Below, one piece after another: positions 11,796-19,128 of a stretch of 64,000 bases of DNA; within the stretch, counting starts at the first letter, position 1, and each line of letters starts with the position of its first letter. The notes below the pieces were generated by a model. The model ran no database searches. It had not been told where the DNA came from and saw only the letters and a program-made list of their open reading frames with translations. The stretch lies in the NCBI RefSeq assembly GCF_055900595.2, contig NZ_CM148325.1, one strand, 5' to 3'. The translations under genes and the position numbers were made by a program.

Positions 11796-13223
11796 TCATT
11801 TAAAGCTATTTCGTAATGCTTTGTAATTAAACACGTTATGGTTTGCATCAAAAACATCTGATTTCCCCTGCCAGCGGGTAATCACCTCCTCTGGTGTTTT
11901 CGGTTGAGCCGGTCTGGTTACGCCCATCCATGCATTAATCAGATAATCATTATACGCAGTGGAAAAAACACTATTCACCGTCTGGCGATCGACATGCTCT
12001 CCCCGTGTCGGGCTGTACCAGATAAACATCGGAACATGATAAGCCTGCTGGCTGGGTTTTATTCCACCATGAAAATAAACGTGTTCTTTTGTCGGGTCAT
12101 ACTCCAGACCGTGATCTGAAAAATACATGACGGATGCCCGACGCGTTTCCAGCATGGCGAAAACCTGTCCCAACAAACTGTCGGTATAATGAATGGAATT
12201 ATCGTAGCAGACTTCTTCTGTATCCAGTGGTTTAAACACGGCTTTATCTCTGGGCCAGTTACTGCAGACTGGCTCATGGCTGCCCGTCAGATGCAGAACA
12301 ATCAGTTTCCTGCACCCCGGATTACTGTTCAGTGCTTCAGCCAGGTGCGGGAGCAGCAACTCATCATAGCCTCTGACATAAATTCTGTTTCTGGCCCGCA
12401 TGGCGATACTGGCCACAGCCGTTCCGTTCTGTCGGAAAGCGGACTGCGCACTGAGCCACCAGGTATCGAACCCTGCCTGATTCGCCATGTTGATAATATT
12501 ATCGGGGTAATGGCGAACATCATGATGCAGCACAGTATCAGCAGATAATGCCAACGGTACCGCAAGGGCGGTATAAGGTGCCCCGCTGATTGCCTGAGTG
12601 AACAGTTTCAGTCGTGATTTCTGTTTCTGAAGCTCTGGTGTGGTTGGCCGCGAGTACCCGTAAATGGACATGTTATCAGTCCTTGCTGATTCACCGATGA
12701 TCAGTACAAATTCATCAATATTATTGTCTGTAATCATCAGCTCGTAGTGAGGTATGGTATCAGCAATCGTCATTAATCTCTGATGCTCCTTTGCGGCCAG
12801 TGCAAAATAGTTCAGATTAAAGAAAGGGGTATATGTGGCAAACCGGGAAGCGACTATGTAAGGATCAACTTCATTTATTTGATACTGTTTCTTCAACGCA
12901 AACTGAAAGGAAGAATATAACGTTACTGTAATTAACAATAAAAATGTAATTACCGTGACCTTTCCCGAAGGCAATGAGGACGTTTTATTTATTGCTGAAC
13001 AGACGAACAATAAAAAGAGGATAATAAACGCAATAACATAGACGACATATATCCTGAACATTCTTATTGCTTCATCAGGATCTGTCTGTAGGATACTGAT
13101 TGCAAAACCATCATTGAATGTGGTGCCAAATGTACACCATGAATACAGGCTGATACTGATATCTGCCGCGGTCAGTAATGTGAACGGAAAGGCCAGAATC
13201 AAACGCAACGTAAGCGATTTCAT
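11796..13223 (-). CDS. Phosphoethanolamine-transferase-like (sulfatase-superfamily) membrane protein, possibly degraded at the 3' end
   Basis: 475 aa; N-terminal TM segments then sulfatase-like core (LIIGESARTDNMSIYGY..., LHLTGSHEP, YFSDHGLEYD...); an extra short downstream frame suggests a frameshift. Confidence 0.55.
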   Translation of the reverse strand: MKSLTLRLILAFPFTLLTAADISISLYSWCTFGTTFNDGFAISILQTDPDEAIRMFRIYVVYVIAFIILFLLFVCSAINKTSSLPSGKVTVITFLLLITVTLYSSFQFALKKQYQINEVDPYIVASRFATYTPFFNLNYFALAAKEHQRLMTIADTIPHYELMITDNNIDEFVLIIGESARTDNMSIYGYSRPTTPELQKQKSRLKLFTQAISGAPYTALAVPLALSADTVLHHDVRHYPDNIINMANQAGFDTWWLSAQSAFRQNGTAVASIAMRARNRIYVRGYDELLLPHLAEALNSNPGCRKLIVLHLTGSHEPVCSNWPRDKAVFKPLDTEEVCYDNSIHYTDSLLGQVFAMLETRRASVMYFSDHGLEYDPTKEHVYFHGGIKPSQQAYHVPMFIWYSPTRGEHVDRQTVNSVFSTAYNDYLINAWMGVTRPAQPKTPEEVITRWQGKSDVFDANHNVFNYKALRNSFK

Positions 13224-13295
13224 TGCCTTAATAATAAGAAGTGAACCGCCCCGGGAATCCTGGAGACTAAACTCCCTGAGAAAGAGGTAAACAGA

Positions 13296-13618
13296 ATGAC
13301 TAAAAATACTCGTTTTTCCCCCGAAGTCCGTCAGAGGGCGATTCGTATGGTTCTGGAAAGTCAGGGCGAATATGACTCACAGTGGGCGGCAATTTGTTCC
13401 ATTGCCCCAAAGATTGGCTGTACACCGGAGACTCTGCGTGTCTGGGTACGCCAGCATGAGCGGGATACCGGAGGCGGTGATGGCGGGCTCACCACCGCTG
13501 AACGTCAGCGTCTGAAAGAGCTGGAACGTGAAAATCGTGAACTGCGCCGCAGTAACGATATCCTTCGCCAGGCTTCCGCTTATTTTGCGAAGGCGGAGTT
13601 CGACCGCCTCTGGAAAAA

Positions 13619-13622
<4 letters not shown>
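13296..13622 (+). CDS. IS629 OrfA
   Basis: [51 protein letters not shown]...; 108 aa. Confidence 0.9.
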
Positions 13623-14509
<887 letters not shown>

Positions 14510-14814
14510 GTTCACAGATAAAACACTCTCCAGGAAACCCGGGGCGGTTCATATCTGCTTTGGACAACGAGCCAATATGTGTTTTGAGACAGGACTTATC
14601 CGCCGCCATAATCTGCTCTACAATCGCTTTGCTGCTCTGACACCTACGGTCACAACAGCCTCACTTGGATACACTCGCTCTGTGTTACTGGTCAGAGGAA
14701 CGACGACTACTCGAGCGAGGTTCCTGTTTGCTGCGTCATTGCTCACGATCACTGCCGGACATGTCTTGCGGATTTCACTGTCAACAGCAGGATCAAATTC
14801 AATCCACCACGTCT

Positions 14815-14900
14815 CACCTGTGCCGTCACTGCTCTGTCATCTTTCTAACACTTTACTGTCTAACACATGTAATAAAAAAGTTATTTTTCTGCAATTCGAG
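14815..14900 (+). promoter_or_regulatory. ugpB promoter region with Pho-box-like repeats
   Basis: ctgtcatctttctaacactttactgtctaacacatgtaataaaaaagttatttttctgcaattcgagc resembles the PhoB-regulated ugp promoter of K-12 (from memory). Confidence 0.5.
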
Positions 14901-14973
14901 CATGATATTTAATCCCACGAGCATGAAACGTGTGAATTCGCTCATCAGGTACAACAAGCAAGAGAGATAAACG

Positions 14974-16290
14974 ATGAAACCGTTACATTATACAGCTTCA
15001 GCACTGGTGCTCGGACTGACGTTAATGGGGAATGCACAGGCAGTGACGACCATTCCGTTCTGGCACTCTATGGAAGGGGAACTGGGTAAAGAGGTGAATT
15101 CTCTGGTCCAACGTTTTAACGCCGAAAACCCGGATTACAAAATTATACCGACTTATAAAGGCAACTACGAAGAGAGTTTAAGTGCGGGGATCGCAGCATT
15201 TCGTACCGGTAACGCTCCGGCTATTTTGCAGGTTTATGAAGTTGGCACCGCCACCATGATGGCGTCGAAAGCCATTAAACCGGTGTATGACGTGTTTAAA
15301 GAGGCGGGGATTAACTTTGATGAGTCGCAGTTTGTGCCGACGGTTTCAGGCTACTACTCCGACAGCAAAACGGGACACTTACTCTCCCAGCCGTTCAACA
15401 GCTCGACTCCTGTTCTCTATTACAACAAAGATGCTTTCAAGAAAGCAGGATTAGACCCAGAACAGCCGCCGAAAACCTGGCAGGATCTGGCGGACTATGC
15501 CGCGAAACTGAAAGCCTCCGGTATGAAGTGCGGCTACTCCAGCGGCTGGCAGGGCTGGATCCAACTGGAAAACTTTAGCGCCTGGAACGGTCTGCCGTTT
15601 GCCAGCAAAAACAACGGCTTTGACGGCACAGATGCGGTGCTGGAGTTCAACAAGCCGGAGCAGGTGAAACACATCGCCATGCTCGAAGAGATGAACAAGA
15701 AAGGCGATTTCAGCTACGTCGGGCGTAAGGATGAATCCACCGAGAAGTTCTATAACGGTGATTGCGCAATGACGACTGCCTCTTCTGGTTCTCTTGCCAG
15801 CATTCGCGAGTACGCCAAATTCAACTACGGCGTAGGCATGATGCCTTACGACGCTGACGCGAAAGATGCACCACAAAACGCCATTATCGGCGGAGCCAGC
15901 CTGTGGGTGATGCAGGGCAAAGATAAAGAAACGTATACCGGCGTGGCGAAGTTCCTCGACTTCCTCGCGAAGCCAGAAAATGCTGCCGAGTGGCATCAGA
16001 AAACCGGTTATCTGCCAATCACCAAAGCGGCGTATGACCTGACCCGTGAGCAGGGCTTTTATGAGAAAAACCCAGGGGCGGATATCGCGACACGTCAGAT
16101 GCTGAACAAACCGTCGTTACCGTTCACCAAAGGACTACGTCTGGGCAACATGCCGCAGATCAGAGCGATTGTGGATGAAGAGCTTGAGAGCGTGTGGACC
16201 GGTAAGAAGACGCCACAGCAGGCGCTGGATACCGCCGTTGAGCGTGGGAATCAGTTACTACGCCGCTTTGAGAAATCGACGAAGTCTTAA
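14974..16290 (+). CDS. ugpB: sn-glycerol-3-phosphate-binding periplasmic protein UgpB (orphan copy, no ugpAEC downstream)
   Basis: 438 aa, [41 protein letters not shown]... near-identical to E. coli UgpB as recalled. Confidence 0.9.
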
Positions 16291-16424
16291 CCAGTGTAAT
16301 GTCGGATACGTTTCGCCTATCTGAGCTAACATCGCGTGTAGGCCGATGTGATTGACATCTTCCTCCTTACGGCATCAACGTTCCAGACTGAGATGTACCC
16401 AGTTCCCTGGTGGAGAAGTCAGTC

Positions 16425-17340
16425 ATGAATATTAATCGTATTGGTTTCGATCTTGCCGAAAAATGTTTTTCAAATCCACGGCGTTGATCACAATGAATAG
16501 TGGTACGGAGAAAAACGCTGAGCCCTCCCCACATGATGACGTTTTTCTCCGGGCTTTCTCCCTGCCTCATCAGCATCGAAGTCTGTGGCTCTTCCCATTC
16601 TGGGCACGGGAACTCATTCCGTATGGGGCCTACCGTGCGCATTATTCCGTAGAAACTTGTCAAATCTTATCTCAAAGGTAACAAAAACGACGCTAATAAT
16701 GCAGCTGCCATCTGTGAGGCCGTCAGCAGGCCCGGCATGCGATTTGTTGTTTTCATATCGGAATCCCAGCAGACGTTACAGGAAGAATACCGGGTCCGGG
16801 CCAGAATCATCCGCGAGCGAACGGCGTTGCGTAATGAAATCCGGGGGCTGTTGAGTGAATTTGGTCTGCTGCTGCCTGTGGGGATAAGGCACGTGCGTAA
16901 AATCCAGCAGGGAATACTGTCCAGGGGCAGTGGAATGACCCTTCATCCGTTTGTTGTGCGAACTGTCAGAGTAAAATGAACTCATATCGTCTCATGACCA
17001 CCGTCTTCATGAGGCTGCAAGGGATGATATCCGTATTAAACAGCTGATGGAGCTAAAAGGAGTTGGTCCCACAACAGCCTGTGCGCTGGTTGCCTGTATC
17101 GGTAATGCACATGATTTTAAAAAGGGACGGCAACTGGCAGCCTGGCTGGGCTGACGCTATCACAATACAGCAGCGGCTGAATGTCGAAGCTGGGCAGGAT
17201 AACAAAAGCCGGTGATTCGTATCTGCGAATGCTTCTGGTTCAGGGGGCTCGTTCAGTACTGATTGGTGCTGAGAAAAGGACTGACTCATTCAGTCGTTGG
17301 GTCTGTTCACTGGTTGAACGCAGAGAATACTGACGCGCTG
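16425..17340 (+). pseudogene. IS110-family transposase remnant (frameshifts and stops)
   Basis: MNINRIGFDLAEK..., ...ISIEVCGSSHSGHGNSFRMG..., ...MELKGVGPTTACALVACIGNAHDFKKGRQLAAWLG... across several frames. Confidence 0.6.
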
Positions 17341-17784
17341 TTGTGGCCATCGCCGCCAGAAAGGTAAGGCTGTGCTGGGCATCATGTCATTACGGTGATG
17401 ATTTCAGGCTGTATTCAGCCAGCTAAAGCACGCAGCAACCGTATGACTATCTGATCTGCAACTCGTTGATGATAAAGTGTTAGACCCCGTGAGGTATATC
17501 TGATTATTGTACAGGATATACGTATCCGCTTAACGAACAAGAGCCTCACTCGCGTCTTTCATCTGGGCCGAATAGATGGGATTCATCATGGTTGTTTATA
17601 GTACCGTCGTCTCTCCCCTTTATTTTTACAGAAAAGCAAACAGAAACCATAAATACCGGCGTTGACATGGCGGGGAAGCCGGCAACGGCTATCCCTACCG
17701 TAATCATAATATTTCTGTCATTTCTGCTCCCTACAATGACGTTAGTTTTACTTCTGGGCGATAACAACGAAAGGAGAGTATGAC

Positions 17785-19128
17785 ATGCACAACTCCAAAA
17801 TCCGGCTGGCTATACTGGTTGGCTGCATGGCTCTGAGCGCCAACCTGTGGGCCAAAGCGCAGCCGGTGCAGGCAACGCTGGCCGGGCATGCAATTCTGCC
17901 GGCAAAATCCGCTGTTTCAACACCGAAGGATGCGCCGGGCGATTTGCAACAGAGCGGCAAATACACCAGCGGCAAACGCGTCACCGAGCTGGGCAGCGTA
18001 GCGGGAAAATCCGCAGAACGCCTGACAGGACTCAGCCTGCCGATCAATGGTCAGCCGTTGCAGGGCCACTCAGGTATCAAACACATGCCCGACGGTACCT
18101 ATTGGGTGCTGACTGACAATGGCTTCGGCAGCAAAGCCAACTCCCCGGACGCCATGCTGTACCTCAACCAATACAAGATAGATTTCAAAGACGGCTCGGT
18201 AGTACCGCTGAAGACGCTGTTCCTGCATGATCCGGATAAAAAGGTGCCGTTCCACATCATCAACGAGAGCACCGAACTACGCTATCTGACCGGCAGCGAT
18301 TTTGATCCGGAAAGCTTCCAGTTTTCCGACGATGCCTTATGGATCGGTGATGAGTTCGGTCCTTACCTGATCAAGACCGACCTGAACGGCAAGGTGCTGG
18401 CGGTGTTCGACACAGAAGTGGACGGTAAGGTGGTTAAATCGCCGGACAACCCGACGCTGACTCTACCTAGCGCTCCGGACGGTAAGCTGAACTTCCAGGT
18501 GGCGCGTTCCAAAGGCTTTGAAGGCATGGCCATCTCGCCGGACGGCAGTAAGCTGTATCCGCTGCTGGAAGGGGCATTGTGGGACGGTGAGCAGTTCGAG
18601 AACGTTGGCGGAAAACGCTACCTGCGTGTGCTGGAGTTCGATGCCAAACAGCAGGCCTGGACTGGTCGCAGCTGGCAGTACGTGCTGGAAGACAACCAGA
18701 ACGCCATCGGCGACTTCAATATGATAGATGATACCCACGGACTGGTGATCGAGCGTGATAACGGCGAAGGCACGGCGGATAAAGCCTGCGTCGCCGGCGC
18801 GCCGACCAACAACTGCTTCAGTCAAGTAGCCAGGTTCAAACGGGTGTATAAAATTGCTTTCTCGGACACTAACGTCGGAAAACCTGTCGAAAAACTGGGC
18901 TATATTGACCTGATGAAGATTCAGGATCCGAACAAGCTGGCACGCAAGCCGCTGAACGACGGTGTGCTGACCTTCCCGTTCTTCACCATCGAGAACGTGG
19001 ATGTGGTTGACACTAACCACATCATCGTAGGCAACGATAATAACTTCCCGTTTTCCTCCAGCCGCTGGCCTAATATGGCGGATGACAACGAGTTTATTCT
19101 ACTGGATGTGAAGGATTTTCTGAAGTAG
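17785..19128 (+). CDS. Secreted phytase-like / esterase-like beta-propeller family protein (tentative)
   Basis: 447 aa with Sec signal peptide (MHNSKIRLAILVGCMALSANLWA); GFEGMAISPDGSKLYPLLEGAL-type blocks; family call is by eye only. Confidence 0.4.
   Translation: MHNSKIRLAILVGCMALSANLWAKAQPVQATLAGHAILPAKSAVSTPKDAPGDLQQSGKYTSGKRVTELGSVAGKSAERLTGLSLPINGQPLQGHSGIKHMPDGTYWVLTDNGFGSKANSPDAMLYLNQYKIDFKDGSVVPLKTLFLHDPDKKVPFHIINESTELRYLTGSDFDPESFQFSDDALWIGDEFGPYLIKTDLNGKVLAVFDTEVDGKVVKSPDNPTLTLPSAPDGKLNFQVARSKGFEGMAISPDGSKLYPLLEGALWDGEQFENVGGKRYLRVLEFDAKQQAWTGRSWQYVLEDNQNAIGDFNMIDDTHGLVIERDNGEGTADKACVAGAPTNNCFSQVARFKRVYKIAFSDTNVGKPVEKLGYIDLMKIQDPNKLARKPLNDGVLTFPFFTIENVDVVDTNHIIVGNDNNFPFSSSRWPNMADDNEFILLDVKDFLK

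Follow-up and report, generated by a model that had tools for sequence, protein, structure and literature searches.

How did a complete ugpB gene, with its promoter and without the permease genes of the ugp operon, come to lie among insertion sequences (ISs) in a genomic island of Escherichia coli, and is it still used there? The gene is located in a stretch of 64,000 nucleotides of contig NZ_CM148325.1 (NCBI RefSeq assembly GCF_055900595.2), called the window below; coordinates are positions in the window unless another sequence is named. The comparisons reported here suggest that the ugpB region is a fossil recombination joint within an island at the tRNA-Phe gene pheU, in which a piece of a foreign ugp operon was broken at a palindromic repeat by one IS and fused, through another, to a phytase-like gene. 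Taken as a whole, we regard this explanation as likely.

A second ugpB copy in an island at pheU

An 8-kb query around ugpB was used for genome matching. It was found at 100% identity over its full length in E. coli GPEC389 and in three other E. coli chromosomes, and twelve genomes matched at least 80% of it. The GPEC389 locus is an island of about 56 kb between pheU (adjoining dicD/dsbD) and cadC, containing an integrase, an S6 autotransporter peptidase, PhoX, two phosphoethanolamine transferase genes, a YadA-like adhesin, CP4-type prophage remnants and many IS fragments. The PhoX gene (L001 2438–4417), 21 kb leftward of ugpB, falls beyond the window. The ugpB module is absent from the pheU island of CFT073, with which it was compared, and a literature search found no paper mentioning an island-borne ugpB.

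The island gene is intact (Table 1). Its product scores 931.9 bits against the NCBIfam equivalog NF008211 (cut-off 411; profile positions 4–439 of 439), is 97% identical to K-12 UgpB and of the same length, and aligns end to end with PDB entry 4AQ4 (E. coli UgpB; E 1e-281), with an additional match to 6X84. Upstream of it, six Pho heptamers in 11-bp phase (CTGTCAT, CTAACAC, CTGTCTA, ATGTAAT, AAGTTAT and CTGCAAT, starting at 14834, 14845, 14856, 14867, 14878 and 14889, and together spanning 14834–14895) line up column for column with the K-12 Pho boxes. The Pho-box consensus CTGTCATNNNNCTGTCAT (PMC4447250) is matched at 14823–14840 with two mismatches and at 14834–14851 with three, and the region has the layout of a Pho promoter, in which two CTGTCAT repeats with a 4-bp AT-rich spacer replace the -35 element. 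Another site, CTGTCGGTAGTCTGTCAT at 4264–4281 on the minus strand, also has two mismatches and ties with the ugpB promoter as the best match of the window; it sits in the 5' third of the S6 autotransporter peptidase gene and is probably a chance or inert intragenic site.

Alignment against K-12 (L002) and the native locus of GPEC389 (L098) confines the ugp homology to about 14812–16345, at 92–93.7% nucleotide identity to the native ugp locus. The captured piece thus measures 1.53 kb and holds 161 bp of promoter, the gene, and 55 bp from the start of the ugpB-ugpA spacer. Searches with K-12 UgpA, UgpE, UgpC and UgpQ by tblastn gave no match in the 64-kb window; ugpA, ugpE and ugpC stand beside ugpB at the native locus only, and ugpA was downstream of the exact island UgpB gene in none of the ten distinct contexts read. 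The original prediction, made from the letters of the stretch, had described a complete ugpB with a Pho-box-like promoter and without ugpA/E/C/Q, and this description holds for the window in every part.

A separate ugp operon exists in the same genome. GPEC389 carries an intact native livF-ugpBAECQ-yhhA-ggt region at 289285–294240, whose UgpB has a protein accession differing from that of the island protein. The island ugpB is 95.0% identical in nucleotide sequence to that of K-12, 94.5% to the native ugpB of its own genome, and 82–84% to those of Citrobacter, Klebsiella and Pseudocitrobacter. Its synonymous divergence (dS) from K-12, another E. coli and Escherichia albertii is about 0.20–0.26, similar to the distances between native copies. 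This pattern of dS and identity points to horizontal transfer from some Escherichia lineage and not to duplication within this genome. Among complete E. coli genomes, a ugpB query matches 5,424 of 5,426 and the 5' end of ugpA is found in 5,423 of 5,426. The best ugpB place has at least 95% identity, corresponding to the island copy, in about 205 of them and 90–95% identity, corresponding to the native copy only, in 5218; each of the three island-bearing genomes listed has two ugpB places.

As judged from these sequence comparisons, the island ugpB is a second, captured copy and not the native operon. The original prediction had raised this possibility and proposed a search for an intact ugpBAECQ elsewhere in the genome; the operon was found, and the 94.5% identity fits. 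The converse explanation, a native ugp operon disrupted in place by IS elements, has nothing in its favour beyond the gene name and is practically untenable: the island locus lies between pheU and cadC, not livF and ggt, the native operon of GPEC389 is intact, which refutes disruption in place, and the two copies are only 94.5% identical.

The right breakpoint: a REP-targeting element and a hybrid IS

Native homology ends at GTGTAGGCCG/GATAAG (16345; a slash marks a junction), inside the second of the two repetitive extragenic palindromic (REP) sequences of the ugpB-ugpA spacer, and the window then continues ATGTGATTGAC. In the native spacer this second REP reads GTAGGCCGGATAAGCGAAGCGCATCCGGCA, a REP type listed as known (PMC11208160). 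The two native REPs are inverted, and their RNA fold reaches -49 kcal/mol (z -8.45) with a 24-bp stem (L098 5599–5680), whereas the island remnant (16288–16350) forms only the small REP1 hairpin, at -14.7 kcal/mol (z -0.35). Since the long REP-REP hairpin is lost in the island copy, any REP-dependent 3' stabilisation of the ugpB message would differ between the copies. Compared with native ugpBAECQ, a member of the Pho regulon, the island copy shares the signal peptide, the phased Pho boxes and the same initial REP pair in the spacer, but it lacks ugpAECQ, sits in the pheU island, diverges by 5–6% in nucleotide sequence and has its long hairpin destroyed.

The sequence beyond the break begins with an IS1111-like, REP-targeting IS, labelled here type A, which supplies the 5' part of the window element. 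When the N-terminal half of the transposase pseudogene, conceptually translated, served as a protein query, relatives with 60–74% identity were found in Escherichia ruysiae, E. coli, Klebsiella variicola, Citrobacter braakii and Salmonella bongori. The left junction GTAGGCCG/ATGTGAT is common to the window, L008, L009, L011 and L116. In all, the REP left junction of the window recurs at five other type A sites, which are independent of one another and come from E. coli, E. ruysiae, K. variicola and S. bongori. It reads TGTAGGCCG/ATGTGATGGAC in E. ruysiae at a contig end (L008), in E. ruysiae and E. coli after yghU (L009 and L010) and in E. coli (L011–L014), TGTAGGCCG/ATGTAATGGAC in K. variicola (L116), and CAGGCCG/ in S. 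bongori (L118). L011 contains a whole type A element of 1,404 bp, whose right junction, ...GTCCATATATG/GATAAGACG...CATCCGGCA (given also as CATATATG/GATAAGACG..CATCCGGCA), restores the remainder of the REP. These junctions place the type A insertion point at GTAGGCCG^GATAAG of the REP. A relationship of the right end to a REP had been suspected in the original prediction, together with an alignment of the flanks to K-12 as a check; the REP remnant was indeed found at 16291–16345, with homology stopping inside REP2 and the five other sites being alike.

In intact type A elements, the inverted repeats (ATGGACA(C/A)CTCCCG) are subterminal, lying 5 bp inside either end, and a long non-coding region is found 3' of the transposase gene. 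Within this region, the 10 nt AGGCCGGATA repeat the target across the insertion point, and a match of that length arose in only 24 of 2,000 shuffles. The layout of IS1111-type elements and the seekRNA model have been described (PMC11187229), and the target copy, which an element guided in this way should contain, is consistent with seekRNA guidance, without being proof of it. Membership of the IS1111 group is indicated by the DEDD (PF01548) and Transposase_20 (PF02371) domains recorded on relatives, the subterminal repeats, the 3' non-coding region and six REP junctions; in the window element the left subterminal repeat is degenerate and the 3' part comes from another IS. Intact type A thus shares subterminal repeats, a 3' non-coding region, a REP target and a target copy with seekRNA-guided, REP-targeting elements of the IS1111 family such as ISPa11 (PMC11187229). 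It differs in its hosts, which are Escherichia, Klebsiella and Salmonella, and the window copy differs as a dead hybrid without the type A non-coding region. An Rfam search of the region and of copies of the genuine IS621, type A and type B (see below) matched neither a bridge-RNA nor a seekRNA family.

Two side observations concern type A elements at other sites. The transposase gene in L011 and L012 contains (GGGTCC)x5 (L011 ~6310–6345), and the window has CCGGGTCCGGGCC at 16790–16802; the tract lies inside the coding region and is prone to slippage. In K. variicola (LR134235.1; L116 1900–3500), a type A copy is cut within its transposase gene by a Klebsiella REP, and about 70 bp of left flank with an intact REP is repeated about 600 bp downstream, representing a local duplication around the REP::IS junction.

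The original prediction had suggested that the right end could stem from an IS621-type element inserted in the ugpB-ugpA REP and a subsequent deletion, considered here as a simple IS-adjacent deletion of ugpAECQ. The break does lie within a REP, and IS621 does target REPs, at the natural target ATCAGGCCTAC with a CT core (PMC11208160; for further IS621 facts see also PMC1525189). Moreover, GPEC389 carries an intact, genuine IS621 between yjeJ and yjeI, beyond the window and 12 kb to the left of pheU (L096 16599–17579; 4321598–4322578). It sits in a REP as TTATCAGGCCT/...ACAGTATCT/ACAGC, with about 190 bp of 5' non-coding DNA, agrees with the published target and CT core, and served as an internal control. 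IS621 belongs to the bridge-RNA-guided IS110 group and resembles type A in its DEDD-type transposase, the lack of target duplication and site-specific insertion in the same E. coli REP class. However, a comparison of the type A transposase with this IS621 copy detected no N-terminal similarity and matched only the C-terminus (26% identity over 161 aa). The non-coding region is 5' of the transposase gene in IS621 and 3' of it in type A, with only 79 bp upstream of the ATG in the window element, and the subterminal repeats of intact type A relatives are degenerate in the window. The insertion points also differ: IS621 inserts at the CT core of ATCAGGCCT^AC, and type A, oppositely oriented with respect to the REP, at GTAGGCCG^GATAAG. 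IS621 would cut the ugp REP at GT^AGGCCGGAT (GT^AG on this strand), 6 bp before the observed junction. As transposase, layout and insertion point all differ, an IS621 identity of the element was rejected. The 3' half, derived from another IS and lacking its terminus, is not what a simple adjacent deletion would leave, and the whole scheme is very improbable.

That 3' half belongs to an element labelled type B, a plasmid-type IS110/IS1111 element with an intact 340-aa gene on plasmids of enterotoxigenic E. coli and others. Between 16346 and about 17042, each 50-column block of the three-way alignment has 30–47 matches to type A and 14–34 to type B; from about 17052 to 17680, blocks mostly have 42–49 matches per 50 to type B and 18–34 to type A. 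At the crossover block, type A matches drop from 46 to 27 while type B matches climb from 25 to 48. Natural type A relatives keep a type A C-terminus and the two transposases are only 44–46% identical, which marks the window element as a recombinant and not as a separate lineage. Among E. coli genomes, 206 have the 1.28-kb stretch in full, always in this module, and its second half alone is about 92% identical to the 340-aa IS110-family gene that is common on plasmids. The transposase pseudogene starts with an ATG at 16425, 135 bp past the ugpB stop, matches residues 1–340 of a relative and contains several stops and frameshifts. An IS110 remnant about 135 bp after the ugpB stop had been predicted: the position fits the reading frame and the element is dead, but it begins earlier, 55 bp after the stop, and is no truncated stub, being a full-length hybrid that extends to 17680, beyond the 17340 at which the prediction ended.

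The right end of the hybrid differs from that of its relatives. In five type B copies from different contexts the terminal sequence is ...GGGGAAGCCCTTATAGTACAATA; the window breaks off at GGGGAAGCC (17680) and passes into unrelated sequence, and the missing terminus implies that this right junction was not made by transposition. Nor is the remaining REP found in the right flank. In the chromosome of E. coli 1218KP (L004 1–2885), three different IS110-family elements (IS5708-like, IS4321-like and type B) follow one another head to tail within 3 kb, all oriented alike, and CCGTTT(T/C)CCAA(G/A)CGG-like sequences flank the type B copy, which may reflect nested targeting of each other's ends.

The simplest account that we infer is a history of IS recombination with a break at the right end. 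A type A IS would have inserted in the REP after ugpB in the donor ugp operon and recombined with a different, type B IS at a short shared motif, and a further illegitimate event would have trimmed the type B end. The outcome would be the removal of ugpAECQ from the captured copy and the fusion of ugpB to the phytase-like gene. The deletion following REP insertion proposed in the original prediction is thereby replaced, since a two-IS hybrid with a truncated right terminus does not correspond to a simple adjacent deletion.

Table 1. Features of the ugpB region of the window, from left to right
Feature	Position	Strand	Details
Phosphoethanolamine transferase gene, 5' end cut by IS629	11796–13241	-	RefSeq: 'incomplete; missing N-terminus'
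IS629-like element of the IS3 family, disabled	13242–14551	+	1310 bp; inverted repeats TGAACCGCCCCGGG / CCCGGGGCGGTTCA at 13242 and 14538–14551
Island DNA common to all variants, including mazF/pemK relic (14618–14803, minus strand) truncated at both ends	14552–14811		PemK/MazF annotation
Captured ugp promoter fragment	14812–14973	+	three Pho boxes and ribosome-binding site; alignment to K-12 ugpB upstream region
Intact orphan ugpB	14974–16290	+	438 aa; signal peptide retained
First 55 bp of ugpB-ugpA spacer	16291–16345	+	REP1 hairpin ~16302–16324; REP2 head only (GTGTAGGCCG, 16336–16345)
Dead hybrid IS, full length	16346–17680	+	starts 55 bp after ugpB stop
5' part, type A: left end, degenerate subterminal repeat, N-terminal DEDD domain	16346–17042	+	~88–90% nucleotide identity to E. 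coli / E. ruysiae type A
Crossover of types A and B at microhomology GCTGATG(G)A, 7–9 bp	17043–17051	+	three-way alignment
3' part, type B: C-terminal transposase domain to 17426, then 3' non-coding	17052–17680	+	~92% nucleotide identity to plasmid IS
10 bp between hybrid IS and upstream region of phytase-like gene	17681–17690	+	
Own upstream region of phytase-like gene	17691–17784	+	plasmid allele homologous from 17691
Phytase-like esterase gene	17785–19128	+	447 aa; N-terminal signal-like sequence; Pfam PF13449, E 6e-61

The left breakpoint and the part of IS629

On the left, the ugp fragment was predicted to abut IS629. An IS629 copy is present on that side, but 260 bp of island DNA with the mazF/pemK relic lies between the two. 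The relic encodes 61 aa that match positions 15–69 of the 111-position MazF profile (E 3e-5), and the left breakpoint of the ugp fragment, 14811/14812, abuts its truncated 5' end. The length, inverted repeats and frameshift signal of the IS fit IS629: an ALIL frameshift pseudoknot at 13577–13693 (116 bits) is the sole Rfam match in the region, and the transposase is annotated with a programmed frameshift and an internal stop. The left flank ...AATAAGAAG joins the left inverted repeat at 13242, and the flanks AAG / TAT show no 3-bp target duplication, as the original prediction had stated.

The stretch 14552–14811 is identical in L005, L006 and L007. Islands of AR_0085, E5 and strain 104 that lack IS629 read through as ..GACAACAT/ATCTGC.., continue to a hypothetical gene, a DDE pseudogene and a TonB-dependent receptor, and carry the same module of mazF relic, ugpB, hybrid IS and phytase-like gene. 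In EC1515, the right junction of IS629 is as in the window and the left flank is different. Because IS629-free variants contain an identical module, IS629 appears to have arrived later and played no part in the capture of ugpB, contrary to the IS629-mediated recombination proposed in the original prediction. IS629 would have inserted 260 bp to the left of the ugp fragment and then mediated a rearrangement of its own left flank, which fits the missing target duplication. A second IS629-type right end lies at 26359–26372 (CCCGGGGCGGTTCA/GTCAGT), preceded by IS629-like sequence (the same 18-mer is found at 14292 and 26113); recombination of the first copy with this one could account for the rearranged left flank of the former.

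These variants also bear on the idea that IS629 and the IS110-family element mobilised ugpB together as a composite or compound transposon, which the position of ugpB between two IS elements might suggest. The two flanking elements belong to unrelated families and are not two copies of the same IS moving as a unit, IS629 is absent from variants with the identical module, which refutes such a transposon, its right junction is constant but its left flank differs from genome to genome, and the hybrid IS is dead and truncated. The probability of this explanation is close to negligible.

Several points weigh against the history of capture and IS recombination preferred here. In the scan of genome contigs for a UgpB donor, Escherichia was represented among the matches listed by one E. 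coli and one E. albertii, and from these matches the donor is not narrowed beyond Escherichia. The arrangement expected in the donor, with a type A IS between ugpB and ugpA, was searched with a chimera that joins the right end of type A to the remaining REP and ugpA (expected junction ...GTCCATATATG/GATAAGCGAAGCGCATCCGGCA...ugpA) and found in 0 of 5,426 complete E. coli genomes. A naturally mosaic IS transposing as a unit is a conceivable but less likely alternative, as the non-REP right flank and the truncated terminus run counter to it. At the left breakpoint no repeat or IS end is visible and the sequence reveals no mechanism, nor does it set the order of the two IS rearrangements.

Maintenance and possible use of the island genes

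Is the orphan ugpB maintained? Its ratio of non-synonymous to synonymous substitution rates (dN/dS) against native copies is 0.06–0.07, a sign of strong purifying selection. Two island haplotypes share the hybrid scar and must therefore have diverged after the capture; their ugpB genes differ at six sites, all of them third-position and synonymous with no non-synonymous change, and the adjacent dead hybrid IS, of similar length, has four differences between the same haplotypes. Gene conversion from the native ugpB was considered for the six sites and rejected, as no tract pattern was seen: the native sequence is matched by the window allele at four sites and by the other allele at two. The same UgpB accession is found in five differently rearranged islands, those of the window's genome, AR_0085, E5, strain 104 and EC1515, and an index of public assemblies lists the exact protein in 5,224 blocks. 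Rearrangement also comes close to the gene: in L111, only 31 bp separate the ugpB ATG from the end of an IS1 gene upstream, and the Pho promoter is displaced; in L106, IS1 moved the ugpB/phytase-like pair next to gss, and the pair survives very different rearrangements.

Under phosphate starvation, the orphan ugpB would probably be expressed through its retained PhoB-type promoter, and its product would probably act as an extra periplasmic binding protein for glycerol-3-phosphate and glycerophosphodiesters that docks to the native UgpAE-UgpC. We lean towards this use of the native UgpAEC from a Pho-type promoter, with somewhat less assurance than towards the history of the joint. Extra binding proteins that share one ATP-binding cassette (ABC) permease are known, such as HisJ/ArgT with HisQMP and LivJ/LivK with LivHMGF. 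The island UgpB would resemble these as a second binding protein encoded away from the permease genes that it is presumed to use; in contrast to them, it is a 97% identical xenologue on a mobile island and not a diverged paralogue with a known distinct ligand. The tryptophans at precursor positions 192 and 195 (mature W169 and W172), which we take to be ligand contacts, are present in the alignment with 4AQ4, and the substitution A189S lies three residues away.

The use of the island protein has points against it as well. The dN/dS of the island gene is 2–3.5 times the native-native values (0.02–0.035), and 11 residues are unique to island UgpB in comparison with K-12, a second E. coli and E. 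albertii, which leaves room for relaxed selection or changed specificity. Much of the ugpB divergence may be older than the capture, only six sites underlie the 6:0 count, and we infer the function with native UgpAEC from sequence. In an alternative explanation, the orphan ugpB is a non-functional hitch-hiker, carried with the phytase-like gene or the island and intact only through recent capture. The window holds no permease or ATPase partner genes, the raised dN/dS would agree with such a gene, the phytase-like gene occurs without ugpB in IS1 composite units on plasmids, and the IS1 insertion in L111 indicates that the Pho promoter is dispensable there. Yet all six haplotype substitutions are synonymous next to a dead IS of similar length with four differences, the protein is identical across thousands of assemblies and many rearranged contexts, and promoter, signal peptide and reading frame are all intact. 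We consider a hitch-hiking gene unlikely.

The hybrid IS links ugpB to the phytase-like gene, which lies 1.5 kb downstream of the exact UgpB gene in all ten of the distinct contexts read. A terminator scan found no plus-strand terminator-like site between the two genes, which is weak negative evidence. About 95 bp of the gene's own upstream region is conserved in a 92.9% identical allele on the conjugative IncF plasmid pRM14721 (L104 5094–8691), where the gene is convergent with a PhoX-family phosphatase gene. The occurrence of the phytase-like gene with PhoX on the plasmid, and of PhoX in the island, suggests an older phosphorus-scavenging pair later split by IS activity. Upstream of the window gene (17704–17740), TCATAATATTTCTGTCAT is followed after 10 bp by TACAAT, and the plasmid allele has CCATAATATTTCTGTCAT...TATTAT, so that CTGTCAT-N10-TACAAT/TATTAT is conserved in both; the motif resembles a half-good Pho box with phoA-like spacing to the -10 hexamer.

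The gene has also travelled without ugpB. On plasmids of Escherichia fergusonii HNCF11W (L102 4248–7887) and E. coli E2 (L103 4248–8075), it stands with part of the hybrid IS, starting at window position 17057 or 16869, between two IS1 copies; such IS1-bracketed plasmids also carry phage-like genes, and most come from poultry isolates. The bracket resembles a composite unit that took the phytase-like gene from the island. One plasmid includes the junction of types A and B, which makes the scar older than that mobilisation. As for an empty site upstream of the gene, strain 104, the one E. coli chromosomal variant examined, differs only in an IS2 insertion. In pRM14721, homology breaks off at 17691, next to the remnant of an IS629 end that IS1 has cut, and the comparison did not recover the original target of type B. 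An ancestral ugpB/phytase-like operon was rejected: distant homologues (Sinorhizobium and a Comamonadaceae plasmid) lack ugp-like neighbours, which argues that the pairing is a recombination accident and not an old operon.

A more speculative possibility is that ugpB, the phytase-like esterase and the island PhoX form an accessory Pho-regulated module for scavenging organophosphates, selected in poultry-associated or extraintestinal E. coli, with an island UgpB of shifted ligand range using native UgpAEC. Hints in this direction are the 6:0 haplotype count, the pair being kept together through rearrangements, the plasmid allele adjoining PhoX, the IS1 mobilisation to plasmids, the conserved CTGTCAT-N10-TACAAT motif and a unique residue near the ligand-binding tryptophans. 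We think such a module doubtful, and less probable than a hitch-hiking ugpB.

The scar is an ordinary, if unusually legible, mosaic joint; it is not a new kind of system and leaves current understanding unchanged. Its ingredients, namely orphan binding-protein genes, REP-targeting IS110/IS1111 elements and the IS-mediated mosaicism of tRNA-linked islands, are already known. Modest new points are the anatomy of the joint, a REP-targeting IS1111-like lineage of enterobacteria distinct from IS621, and evidence for the maintenance of an extra ugpB. About 4% of complete E. coli genomes, many of them from poultry and human extraintestinal isolates, hold this extra, apparently selected Pho-type ugpB. 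As a second REP-targeting IS lineage in enterobacteria with a defined insertion point, type A may be of interest for work on bridge-RNA and seekRNA recombinases. For island evolution, the joint illustrates that REP-targeting, RNA-guided IS110/IS1111 elements can serve as breakpoints carrying fragments of core operons into pathogenicity-type islands, and that a hybrid scar can result when two different IS110-family elements recombine.

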